Below, piece by piece: positions 27,548-29,298 of a stretch of 64,000 nucleotides of DNA. The stretch spans positions 18,026-82,025 of IMG/VR virus record IMGVR_UViG_2778261533_000001. One strand, given 5' to 3'. Each line of letters starts with the position of its first letter. The stretch's first letter is position 1. The notes under the pieces are model-generated. The model made no database searches. It had not been told where the DNA came from and saw only the letters and a program-made list of their open reading frames with translations. Source of the DNA: a virus (Duplodnaviria > Heunggongvirae > Uroviricota > Caudoviricetes). A program made the translations under genes and the position numbers.

Positions 27548-28479
27548 TGGTTATCCCTCAATAAAAGTGACATATTTATTAGATTGCGGTGCCGGGTTCC
27601 TCCCGGTGTCCTTTGGCTGGTTATCCACCGTGGACGGGGAAACAAGGAGAAATGAATGGACTGATATAACCATTTCCCCGCGTGCGCTTAGCCGCATTCA
27701 CCGCAACGGAAAGAGCATTCTTGGTGGACCTGTAGATTGGGATATGAACCCGTTACAGGAGAATGCTCTTACCTGTTACGTGCTCCGTTTCGTGGAGCTA
27801 ACGGCGGGTGATCGGGCCGCACCAGACTGGACTTATTTCAGCGTTATGCTCATGCCAGAGAATCAAACTGTGATGGTCGGTGCTGAACTCCGACACAGGG
27901 TTGTAGCAAGCCCCGCAAAGCGCGCACTACTGTAGTTGCGGCACATCAGCCTGTGCATTCACCACAATGTTGAGAACACTGGTTGTCACGCTGCAACGCA
28001 ACATTTATTCGTAGATTGGGATATGACCCCGTTACGCCAGTGTTCTCAACGTTGTAGTGCCGGTTACGGTTCCGGCCAGGCCTCTTCCTCAACGGGGTGT
28101 TCTCCATACGGACTACCGTTTATTGGTCGTTCCTGCGGTTTATGTTGTGAAGCCAGATGCTTATCTTCTGGTTGCTTCAAAGAGCTGCACTTCATCACAA
28201 CGGTAAGAGCACTCGATGCATTTAAGCCAAGCTCCATAAGGGAGAATGCCCTTACCTGTTGTGTTGTGATGACCGGTGCTGATCTCCGGCTTGCGGTTAT
28301 TTCAGACTCTCACGGGCGTTTAATTGCCCCGCCGAACAGCTCTTTTCCGCAATAGCTGCAATGTCTTTCGCGCATCAGCCTGCGCATTCATCACAACGGT
28401 AAGGGTACTTCGTAGGGATTCGAACCCTCTGCCAAGCTCGGCGATCTCCGACGTCGCAAAATACCCTTACCTGTTGTGC

Positions 28480-28555
28480 TGGTGCCGATTAACGGACTCG
28501 AACCGCTGACATCCTGCTTACAAGGCAGGCGCTCTACCAACTGAGCTAAACCGGC
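28480..28555 (-). tRNA. tRNA-Thr (anticodon UGU)
   Basis: 76 nt; minus strand GCCGGTTTAGCTCAGTTGGTAGAGC-GCCTGC-CTTGTAA-GCAGG...GGTTCGAGTCC...CACCA. Confidence 0.9.
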
Positions 28556-28557
28556 AT

Positions 28558-28633
28558 TGGCGATGGTGAATGGATTTGAACCATCGACCCGTTGATTAAC
28601 AGTCAACCGCTCTAACCGCTGAGCTACACCATC
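28558..28633 (-). tRNA. tRNA-Asn (anticodon GUU)
   Basis: 76 nt; minus strand GATGGTGTAGCTCAGCGGTTAGAGC..CTGTTAA..GGTTCAAATCC..CACCATCGCCA; 2-nt spacer from tRNA-Thr. Confidence 0.9.
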
Positions 28634-29298
28634 ACTTGCCGGGTACGTCTCCGGCGAGGGCTTCCACCTCCGTATGCTTTTCGGCGCACCTCGCCCTAGC
28701 TGCAATTCGGTAACAGGGGATGCACAACCCTGGCTTCCAGCGTGATTAGCGCCTTCAGCATGACGGGATATACCCGTAAATTCGTGGAACTGTACCCAAA
28801 GTGCTGTTAAGCACCGCTGTTACGCTGAAAAGAAAACGCAACAGGAAAGGACGCTGACCAACAGATGGCCCCTTCTCGTTCATCTGGTTAATCACACCAG
28901 CGCCCTTACCTGTTGTGCCTCCCCGTTCCCTAATACACAGACGGGGACACTCTGCGGTCGATTTTTTGACGGGGGACGACTCATACCCCGTGGCATCTGG
29001 CTTCTTAGGCCGCTACCATCATCAGATCATCGTTTGCATTTACTTTAATGGTCAGTTTCTAAACCGCCGCAAAGTCGCTAACCATGACGAAAACCCTGAA
29101 AAAAACGCCCACCCGAAGATGGGCAAACTGGAAGCTCGTAACGCACTTCGGCGTTGCCACTTAGGCGCATGGTCAACCTGGCAACTCGGTGGTTTGTCTG
29201 GGAGGACTAGGCCCAGCCATGCTTACCGCCGCGCCTGTCGCGGCTAACAGCTAAATCGCTCTATAAATCACGATTCATTGAGGCGATATTACACTAAT

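Follow-up and report, generated by a model that had tools for sequence, protein, structure and literature searches.

In a 2014 census of transfer-messenger RNA (tmRNA), phage tmRNAs were found only in mycobacteriophages and in Bacillus phage G, and phage DS6A was seen to have kept a partial tmRNA that may interfere with trans-translation in its host (PMC4131195). Here we describe a tmRNA-like element and a family of long hairpins in an isolate of the enterobacterial phage P1. The material is a stretch of 64,000 nucleotides (positions 18,026 to 82,025 of IMG/VR record IMGVR_UViG_2778261533_000001; hereafter the window), and the region concerned lies at 27560-29290, where an initial annotation, made from the letters alone, had recorded structured repeats around a tRNA cluster. 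The minus strand, which is the strand of the ban operon, is the functional strand of this region. With some reservation we favour the explanation that this stretch forms the leader of the ban operon of P1, on the minus strand and untranslated, and is at the same time an RNA island composed of non-coding modules that circulate among enterobacterial phages; this reservation applies to the explanation as a whole, as developed below.

Like the tmRNAs of bacteria, whether one-piece or permuted two-piece, the P1 element has a GCA resume codon preceded by U(-5) and A(-4), a 10-codon open reading frame (ORF) of the form AN(D/E)...(A/V)A that resembles ANDENYALAA, a stop codon located in a hairpin similar to helix 5, H-type pseudoknots (PK) past the ORF and a weak match to the tmRNA_permuted model. 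Unlike them, it is devoid of an acceptor stem, a CCA end, G3:U70, a T-arm and a D-loop; neither a helix 2 nor a PK1 was found in it, it contains two pseudoknots only, measures about 180 nt, is encoded by a phage and carries a 5' domain that is antisense to host tmRNA. It shares with the phage tmRNAs of the mycobacteriophage Bxz1 group, Bacillus phage G and the DS6A fragment (PMC4131195) the property of being a phage-borne tmRNA derivative. However, these are either complete tmRNAs or a tRNA-like half, whereas the P1-type RNA joins an mRNA-like half to an antisense domain and belongs to enterobacterial phages.

A second parallel is provided by AgvB and AsxR, the anti-small RNAs (anti-sRNAs) of enterohaemorrhagic Escherichia coli (EHEC) prophages (PMC4104026), which are phage RNAs that put a conserved regulatory RNA of the host out of action by base pairing; CACAACA, the GcvB-target motif of AgvB, recurs in the hairpin arms described below. 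In contrast to AgvB and AsxR, the proposed target in our case is tmRNA and not an Hfq-dependent sRNA, the RNA is larger, structured and ORF-bearing, and neither a Rho-independent terminator nor an Hfq module was identified in it. Processing hairpins for RNase III are known from the early RNA of T7 and from rRNA operons, and in the tRNA cluster of T4 stable RNAs other than tRNAs are co-transcribed with the tRNAs. Similarly, the P1 leader has repeated long hairpins between the functional units of a polycistronic phage transcript, cleavage being here only predicted. Unlike the T7 and rRNA hairpins, to which they have no sequence similarity, those of P1 are shared across many phage families and have a conserved bulged A and a U-U mismatch.

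Neither the long-hairpin family nor the tmRNA-like element is represented in Rfam 15, and in the literature, which was covered incompletely, no description was found of a tmRNA-like RNA in P1 or in other enterobacterial phages. Whatever their function, both are defined here as RNA families that Rfam lacks. The combination of a tmRNA derivative with an antisense RNA would constitute a new variation on the known tmRNA theme.

The tmRNA-like element of the ban leader

A comparison of the 2 kb around the region gave 100 % identity with Escherichia phage P1 (OP279344) and 99 % with the P1 reference. The annotation of the reference (AF234172), moved to window coordinates by alignment with an offset of +26280, places the region between dmt and tciA, in the ban operon leader; its minus-strand transcription starts from the promoter Pban, which is under the control of the C1 repressor at the operator Op72. 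As transferred with this annotation, the -10 and -35 elements of Pban and the bivalent C1 operator Op72 (Oban) occupy 29285-29314 (-), the start of a transcript that covers the whole region. The reference further lists a “dicF-like region”, tRNA-Asn, tRNA-Thr and the plus-strand ORFs upl and plp.

The segment 29096-28920 (-) is, as far as its sequence and conserved pairings indicate, a previously unannotated, tmRNA-derived RNA of about 180 nt without a tRNA-like domain. It had gone unnoticed in the initial annotation, which had, however, suggested the searches for tRNAs and RNA families that gave the first lead to it: nothing beyond tRNAs was recovered at gathering thresholds or at E<=10, but a weak match to the Rfam model tmRNA_permuted (24 bits) appeared around 29005-29110. 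The scores remain below the Rfam gathering thresholds, with 22–24 bits against 47 for tmRNA_permuted and 14–15 bits against 84 for beta_tmRNA.

A linker, the resume signal and the tag ORF together occupy 29005-29059 (-). On the minus strand one reads UAAAU|GCA AAC GAU GAU CUG AUG AUG GUA GCG GCC UAA, the translation of the ORF (29037-29005) being ANDDLMMVAA*; the E. coli tmRNA tag is ANDENYALAA. Ten codons and a stop are present in 133 of 133 homologues, which comprise 30 nucleotide and 16 peptide variants, including ANDDLMMVAA, ANDDVVLMAA and ANDEQFLAVA. The peptides start with AN(D/E) and end with (L/M/V)(A/M/V)(A/V)A, and synonymous changes occur in Ala, Val and Leu codons. For the tag frame, the ratio of non-synonymous to synonymous changes (pN/pS) amounts to 0.62, compared with 1.35 and 1.13 for the two alternative frames. 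An in-frame UAG is located 7 codons upstream of the GCA, with no standard start codon between the two. The string UAAAU|GCA occurs in all 133 copies, for which the mode of collection discussed below has to be kept in mind, and in 8 BLAST-derived copies. Its U at -5 and A at -4 match U85 and A86 of tmRNA, the latter being the nearly invariant nucleotide that sets the frame (PMC2481249).

Helix 5, PK2 and PK3 follow in this order within 28920-29012 (-) and are supported by covariation. Around the stop codon, helix 5 alternates between CUGG/CCAG and CUGA/UUAG. In PK2 (-), stem S1 pairs 28991-28987 with 28973-28969 and stem S2 pairs 28980-28977 with 28960-28957; in PK3 (-), the corresponding stems are 28956-28952 with 28940-28936 and 28947-28942 with 28925-28920. 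Five fully compensated stem versions were counted for S1 of PK2, and S1 of PK3 has six versions. Stem S2 of PK2, which exists as CCGA/UCGG, GUCG/CGAC, CCAG/CUGG and CCAA/UUGG, is perfect in 93 of 95 sequences and fixed in position. Upstream of the resume codon, RNAalifold yields only an invariant 3-bp hairpin, and a candidate CUUUG/CAAAG pairing is, on our reading of the alignment, out of register across families.

ARAGORN, permuted forms included, called no tmRNA in the window or in the related phage loci L014-L018 and L142-L145, and no acceptor stem, CCA end or T-arm belonging to the tmRNA-like RNA was found; the position equivalent to that of the T-arm is taken by PK3. In some copies, moreover, only about 7 nt separate the start of the RNA from its own promoter, too few to accommodate an acceptor strand. 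Nor was a universal tRNA-like partner detected: a tRNA-like hairpin apex with a canonical T-arm, of the type found in hairpin M4 (see below), is present in only 37 of the 133 loci, about 5 of them outside P1-like phages, and the only common partner returned by a k-mer co-occurrence scan was the long hairpin that comes next, together with its tail. In Ackermannviridae and N4-like phages, orphan tRNA-like RNAs are situated upstream of the element; there are none in Bas79.

The element is present in 331 phage records of unrelated families, where it is almost never annotated. The carriers include P1-like phages, Ackermannviridae (Det7, UPM 2146, phiMAM1), N4-like Gamaleyavirus, T1-like phages/Drexlerviridae and one record labelled Vibrio phage; among 185,579 species-representative genomes it was found in only 4. 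In several lytic phages it has a promoter of its own, TTGACA-17-TAGATT, and shares its strand with the tRNAs, opposite to the flanking coding sequences.

The 5' part of the tmRNA-like RNA, 37 nt at 29060-29096 (-) (GGGUUUUCGUC..GCGACUUUGCGGCGGUUUA), is complementary to nt 68-106 of E. coli tmRNA. The first sign of this anti-tmRNA domain was an opposite-strand match between the E. coli ssrA gene and a profile built for the element. Three colinear blocks face tmRNA nt 68-106: UAAAAAGCCGCAA lies opposite the 3' strand of PK1, AGUC|GC spans the resume codon and (G)ACGAAAACUA covers tag codons 3-6. In P1, 29 of the 32 aligned positions are Watson-Crick pairs (29–32 positions over the three blocks), and the score is reached in 0 of 1000 dinucleotide shuffles of tmRNA. 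For six diverged representatives, 0–1 of 1000 such shuffles attain the local score, while the same-sense control stays at null level. Scores in 61 diverse copies range from 28 to 44 (median 37), the null mean being about 17, and 59 of these copies target tmRNA nt 68-104/106. Against its own downstream sequence the antisense domain scores only 15, i.e., null level, and no other part of the 1.75-kb leader matches tmRNA in antisense as well as it does. An alignment of 60 phage copies shows hardly any variation in the paired blocks, but linkers of differing length and sequence between these. Unrestricted RNAduplex predictions for the whole element with tmRNA are uninformative since shuffles do equally well. 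On the strength of this local complementarity, the RNA probably targets host tmRNA.

Long bulged hairpins and the exchange of modules

The repeats that had initially been listed as separate motifs are all present, with small offsets. The 15-mer CCCTTACCTGTTGTG has exact copies at 28249-28263, 28464-28478 and 28903-28917, the variant reported at 27768 is a copy with 3 mismatches at 27766-27780 (+), and another copy with 3 mismatches lies at 28837-28851 (-). Allowing up to 3 mismatches, the 64 kb contain 6 matches against 1.2 expected, and 6 were reached in none of 100 shuffles. Near-duplicate segments were recovered at 27732-27756 and 28011-28035 (25 nt, 96 %) and at 27941-27974 and 28370-28403 (34 nt, 82 %), as well as the inverted repeat, the arms of which (27960-27982 and 28037-28059; 23 nt, 91 % complementary) include the perfect 14-mer quoted before. 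The T-arm-like element GGGATTCGAACCC is located at 28415-28427 rather than at 28412, within a helix GGTAAGGG...CCCTTACC. What had been missed is that the repeats are arms of a single five-copy, covarying hairpin family. The 15-mer reads CACAACAGGUAAGGG on the RNA strand and provides the 5' arm of the hairpin, whose 18-bp stem has a conserved bulged A and whose apex is variable.

A covariance model of this hairpin (R1), built from 12 copies, finds only five members in the window, M1 to M5, all on the minus strand and with 54–71 bits; their plus-strand mirrors score 19–25 bits. M1 (27694-27787, 70.7 bits) contains the variant 15-mer and has the apex CCUGUAACGGGUUCAUAUCCCAAUCUACAGG. M2 (27955-28064, 59.8 bits) corresponds to the inverted repeat and carries a degenerate T-arm, GGGGUCAUAUCCC, at its apex. 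M3 spans 28188-28270 (66.3 bits). M4 (28384-28485, 65 bits) has a tRNA-like apex that comprises, besides a 5-bp arm and a linker, the T-arm AGGGUUCGAAUCCCU (plus-strand positions 28415-28427), and M5 (28829-28924, 54.0 bits), which contains the third exact 15-mer, directly abuts PK3. All five fold more stably on the minus strand, by 4–13 kcal/mol (e.g., −46.0 versus −32.9 kcal/mol for M5). The proposal of a structured non-coding RNA holds up. The minus-strand RNA of 27548-28479, a 932-nt segment, folds to −350 kcal/mol compared to −293 for shuffled versions (z = −6.3); for the plus strand of the same segment z is −4.2.

In other phages, the model gave 90 matches at 67 loci (0.49 Mb of loci searched). 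In the hairpin alignment 93 % of the cells are paired, and compensatory changes affect 14 of the 18 pairs; none of 500 shuffles and no slid register gave comparable values. The U-U mismatch and the bulged A are conserved, and U-G pairs mark the strand. Moreover, 79 of 85 hairpin matches lie on the strand of the tmRNA-like element, the other 6 being low-scoring mirror hits, and all 51 tRNAs situated within 2.5 kb are co-oriented. The hairpin starts 1–2 nt past the end of another helix, which is PK3 in 37 cases, a tRNA acceptor or 3' end in 7 and a small hairpin in the rest, for example GCUCC-ACGAAAC-GGAGC or CCGG-AACCGUAA-CCGG.

The suggestion that the repeats are pseudo-tRNAs is correct to the extent that M4 contains a tRNA-like T-arm domain, consisting of the T-arm and one further arm, without a D-arm and with an acceptor that reaches a length above 20 bp. 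No cloverleaf is called for M1-M5 by ARAGORN or by the Rfam tRNA model (RF00005), and only two tRNAs, Thr and Asn, are called in the range; the third tRNA of the cluster, Met/Ile2 at 26763-26838, is outside it. A CRISPR array had been rightly dismissed: the repeats are arms of inverted repeats, their spacings vary from 196 to 483 nt and the intervening segments are mutually homologous.

Because of their fixed position after helix ends, their fixed strand and their location between tRNAs and after the tmRNA-like RNA, the hairpins might punctuate the polycistronic RNA as processing sites and 3'-end stabilisers, a reading to which we subscribe only tentatively. They may also act as tRNA-processing signals, which had already been considered and is a live hypothesis. 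The stem, with its 18 bp and the apex helices, is long enough for an RNase III site of about two helical turns. In such a role the family would be the processing and stability scaffold of an RNA operon.

The modules of the leader are found in very different genomic contexts. A 137-nt spacer at 28262-28398 is 97–98.6 % identical in lambdoid phages (mEp460 and Stx phages) and in the Klebsiella siphovirus IME207, its counterparts lying at 2501-2637 of locus L003 and 2501-2643 of locus L005. In lambdoid phages it sits between the repressor gene and the leftward early genes, a position that we read as the PL leader, and in IME207 it adjoins two tRNAs. A 298-nt query composed of M3, the spacer and M4 has matches in about 1100 of 5426 complete E. 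coli genomes. Other locations of the modules are just upstream of the N gene of a P22-like phage, a gap in the structural operon of phage Sasha and Ackermannviridae.

Close relatives of P1 differ in the number of modules. The P1 reference and D6 are without window positions 28214-28386, which hold most of the 137-nt spacer, P7 and Ro157c2YLVW are without 28267-28459 and SJ46 is without both 27757-28010 and 28214-28386. All length differences among the P1 relatives have their junction within a repeat; as these junctions indicate, hairpin copy number differs by recombination between repeats. Additional tRNAs occur in the same array, namely Tyr in Ro157c2YLVW and a Ser(UGA)-like tRNA in D6 and P7, as well as Arg, Tyr, Ser or Met in viral contigs. 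A role as recombination linker, which the data illustrate descriptively, may coexist with an RNA function.

Possible functions and alternative explanations

In the mechanism that we propose, C1 derepression would allow RNA polymerase to proceed from Pban through a terminator at about 29100. The long hairpins would then serve as processing sites, of the RNase III or RNase E type, and as 3'-end stabilisers, releasing the tRNAs and the tmRNA-like RNA. The latter would dock on host tmRNA via its antisense domain and mask the host resume codon. As a consequence, either host tagging would be blocked or the phage resume codon would be presented, such that rescued ribosomes add a phage-specified tag; the tmRNA-like RNA would therefore require neither a tRNA-like domain nor a PK1 of its own. 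Docking is suggested by the combination of an antisense domain over the resume codon, a constrained tag ORF, helix 5 and pseudoknots with the lack of a tRNA-like domain and PK1. Our best inference is that docking would at minimum mask the host template and inhibit tagging, and at most swap the tag. Tag swapping, in which an intermolecular helix would replace PK1 while the host tRNA-like domain and SmpB deliver the phage template, is conceivable but somewhat doubtful. If it takes place, phages of Enterobacterales, P1 among them, would encode a surrogate template that acts in trans in trans-translation, and rescued proteins would carry a tag with a proteolytic fate unlike that of the host ...ALAA tag.

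A number of points weigh against this scheme. In P1, an intrinsic terminator lies directly upstream of the tmRNA-like copy. The viral-contig set was collected with the pattern TAGAAAC..ACCA......TAAATGCAAACGA, hence the first 2.7 codons and the nucleotides at -5 and -4 are ascertained in this set; only the 8 BLAST-derived sequences are independent of the search pattern, and the same features are seen in those. Duplex energies with whole tmRNA are modest (z from −2.4 to −4.6, relative to mononucleotide shuffles). Since the phage copies are homologous, their shared target site does not count as independent evidence, and complementarity was scored against E. coli tmRNA only, also for phages of other hosts. 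As for the hairpins, nothing ties them to RNase III specifically, and their copy number varies freely among P1 relatives, which implies that no single copy is essential.

The tmRNA-like RNA could alternatively be just an antisense inhibitor or decoy of host trans-translation, with a tag ORF that is never translated. The position of the antisense domain over the host resume codon and the lack of a detectable tRNA-like domain would fit such a role, and there is a precedent in the tmRNA fragment of phage DS6A, which comprises the tRNA-like domain only and was proposed to titrate SmpB (PMC4131195). However, an inhibitor has no need for an ORF, yet the 10 sense codons and the stop are kept in every copy, Ala, Val and Leu codons change synonymously while the C-terminus stays hydrophobic, pN/pS is below 1 in the tag frame only and the frame-setting A at -4 is retained; we therefore regard pure inhibition as rather unlikely. 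Another antisense scenario invokes the CACAACA modules as sponges or mimics of the host sRNA GcvB. This heptamer, of which the RNA strand contains 4 copies, is the consensus of GcvB R1 targets that is used by the prophage anti-sRNA AgvB (PMC4104026), and the 3' arm of the hairpin, CUUACCGUUGUGAUG, resembles CUUACGGUUGUGAUG of GcvB. But strong stems enclose three of these sites, composition-matched shuffles yield predicted GcvB duplexes that are just as good, and local alignment scores are not significant given the number of windows tested, making this scenario very unlikely.

Are the hairpins themselves functional? One may view them as selfish or neutral linker repeats, either similar to miniature inverted-repeat transposable elements (MITEs) or serving as homology patches for mosaic recombination, a property that can coexist with an RNA function. 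That a spacer with hairpin arms on either side is nearly identical between P1, a Klebsiella siphovirus and lambdoid phages, and that all indel junctions are located within repeats, is what one would expect from linkers. A transposase site, in contrast, would keep its sequence, whereas here compensatory changes keep the stem; strand is fixed relative to the tRNAs and the tmRNA-like RNA, position is fixed right after another helix, and neither a transposase nor target-site duplications were seen, so that a role mainly of this kind is unlikely. It is quite unlikely, too, that the repeats are functionless remnants, i.e., decayed tRNA genes and recombination scars of a shrinking tRNA array. The canonical T-arm in M4, the degenerate ones in the apexes of M1 and M2, the extra tRNAs of P1 relatives and the variation of module number by unequal recombination all point in this direction, but the conserved part is the base of the stem, which is unlike any part of a tRNA, and not the tRNA-like apex. 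Covariation of the stem pairs across phage families, the marking of one strand by G-U pairs, the failure of ARAGORN and Rfam to call a tRNA and the presence of hairpins in phages with no tRNA nearby, such as Bas79, equally argue against decay. Antitermination elements of the nut or put type would account for read-through of the leader, where a strong terminator has to be passed in P1, and related modules do occur in lambdoid PL leaders and just upstream of N in a P22-like phage. Nevertheless, this explanation is highly improbable: beyond a GCUCUU string inside a stem there is no likeness to boxA/boxB or put, and the same modules are found in structural-gene gaps and in the RNA-only operons of lytic phages. 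Least credible of all is a coding role, in which the repeats would be coding repeats and the products small proteins, either Upl and Plp from the plus strand or that of a 57-aa ORF on the minus strand. Although upl and plp figure in the P1 reference records and a hypothetical protein is annotated in OP279344, the Plp frame is broken into two or three in P7, Ro157c2YLVW and this window, SJ46 has a truncated version of it, D6, P7 and SJ46 have no Upl, and none of 6 ORFs tested has a credible Pfam match. Since the M2 palindrome forms part of its ORF, Plp also matches itself on the opposite strand, and the C-terminal end is encoded antisense to tRNA-Thr. The coding reading was rejected on account of this lack of conservation and of Pfam matches, in agreement with the initial annotation, which had seen no convincing protein genes, and there is reason to remove upl and plp from the annotation.

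Laboratories have relied on P1 for 70 years, and ribosome rescue matters for phage growth; all that has so far been annotated in this stretch are two dubious ORFs and the “dicF-like region”. If the processing and docking scheme proposed above is true, a large and varied group of enterobacterial phages, both temperate and lytic, possesses an RNA gene that has escaped recognition and is directed against ribosome rescue by tmRNA-SmpB, the carriers including P1-like, Vi01-like, N4-like and T1-like phages, some of which are used in therapy. The mechanism, be it inhibition of tagging or its re-templating, is directly testable. There would also exist a natural split tmRNA assembled from host and phage parts, and new tag sequences would become available for the study of ClpXP and SspB recognition. 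Independently of any function, phage tRNA clusters are seen to be embedded in a modular RNA scaffold that recombines between unrelated phages. The sharing of these modules by hundreds of unrelated enterobacterial phages suggests that phages tamper with host ribosome rescue.

Further modules and neighbouring features

The two tRNAs of the leader are tRNA-Asn (GUU) at 28558-28633 (-), called by ARAGORN and scoring 72.7 bits with the Rfam tRNA model, and tRNA-Thr (UGU) at 28480-28555 (-), called by both methods, the encoded CCA of which is followed at once by M4. Small hairpins accompany them. One of the type designated H-a, GCCGGAGACGUACCCGGC, was read from the sequence just 5' of tRNA-Asn at 28638-28655 (-) and belongs to repeats D4 and D6. 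The 137-nt spacer (-) contains an H-b hairpin (GCGCAGGCUGAUGCGC, 28370-28385) and an H-a hairpin (CCGGAGAUCAGCACCGG, 28273-28289). A further H-a-type hairpin, CCAGAAGAUAAGCAUCUGG, followed by CUUCACAAC, lies at 28153-28171 (-) and is part of repeat D4; it is also present 24 nt upstream of N in the P22-like phage SPN9CC, and in phage Sasha. H-a consists of a 4–5 bp stem and a loop AGWUMAGCA, followed by CAYCACAAC. The consensus of H-b is GCRCAGGCUGAUGYGC, with a compensatory change from A-U to G-C between copies (GCAC/GUGC versus GCGC/GCGC).

At 27781-27824 (-), a degenerate T-arm is followed by CCCGCC(GUU)AGCUCCAC, and the hairpin GCUCC-ACGAAAC-GGAGC lies directly 5' of M1. The string CCCGCC(GUU)AGCUCCAC resembles the 3' end of tmRNA, CCCGCCAGCUCCACCA, albeit weakly (same-sense score 23, reached by 2 of 200 shuffles). 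Pairing of its AGCUCC strand with GGAGC further downstream recalls a permuted acceptor stem, and the segment could have been left behind by a tRNA-like domain or by an ssrA att site. Hairpins with the loop ACGAAAC and compensated stems exist in other phages as well, and this 7-nt loop recurs on many different stems in phage RNA islands.

Some of these islands contain additional RNAs. Those of Klebsiella phage UPM 2146 (L008) and of the N4-like phage PD205 (L014) are non-coding over more than 2 kb and carry, besides the tmRNA-like RNA and long hairpins, several tRNA-like RNAs with acceptor and T arms and without an anticodon arm, e.g., GGCGAAG...UAUGGUUCGAUUCCAUGCCUUCGCCA, some of which end in CCA. 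A module AUGUAGGGGUAUGUAUGGGUUACGGGG, held in a 13-bp stem CUUAAUAUCCAGC/GCUGGAUAUUAAG, recurs in T1-like and N4-like RNA islands (L017 1740-1800, L005 2440-2500 and L014 about 2370-2400) and does not occur in P1. About 150–200 nt downstream of the tmRNA-like element of locus L071 is the sequence CCUGACGAGUCCAUGAGGGACGAAACGC, which has the hammerhead-ribozyme core CUGANGA...GAAA. The Ser(UGA)-like tRNA gene of D6 (L010 1016-1103, -) and P7 (L012 1011-1097, -) is 87 nt long, has a 9-bp acceptor and scores 43 bits with the Rfam model of tRNA-Sec (threshold 47); its position is that of the P1 segment upstream of M1. Sub-threshold Rfam matches to microRNA (miRNA), YrlA and ALIL models were discarded as artefacts of the long hairpins or the tRNAs.

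In the promoter-proximal part of the leader, a terminator scan and folding identified an intrinsic terminator at 29099-29125 (-), UGCCCAUCUUCGGGUGGGCG followed by U7; the tRNAs and ban lie beyond it and can be reached only by read-through. It lies within the “dicF-like region” of the P1 annotation (29089-29190, -). The sole part of that region which matches the Qin prophage is 29153-29191 (-), 39 nt at 87 % identity, and the match concerns the stretch just upstream of mature DicF, not DicF itself. In addition, the Rfam DicF model has no match in the region at E<=10. An identity with the DicF sRNA was rejected on these two grounds. Members of the hairpin family were not found in the dicF region of Qin.

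At the other end, the leader merges into a structured 5' untranslated region (UTR) of tciA (27585-27705, -), a TerB-family gene that starts at 27547 and whose TerB domain was confirmed by Pfam. The UTR is related to the Rfam family STnc100, aligning to positions 31-147 of the model with scores below the gathering score of 47 (33.9 bits here and 39.6 in phage D6), and P1 and D6 differ in it by a compensatory hairpin change (CCGGG/CCCGG versus CCUGG/CCAGG). Instead of being a free sRNA, STnc100 may act in cis, as the leader of TerB-like genes.

Beyond the promoter, the methyltransferase Dmt (window 29306-32347, -) has 1013 aa in this P1 isolate versus 754 aa in the P1 reference; it contains an intein, with a Hint domain and a LAGLIDADG homing endonuclease, within its C5-methylase part. 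The window further holds two separate C4 antisense RNA genes, at 1553-1763 (-) and 51455-51661 (-), with 76.7 and 69.6 bits; an isrK-like RNA adjoins one C4 gene, and the other is accompanied by an a1/b1 target element.

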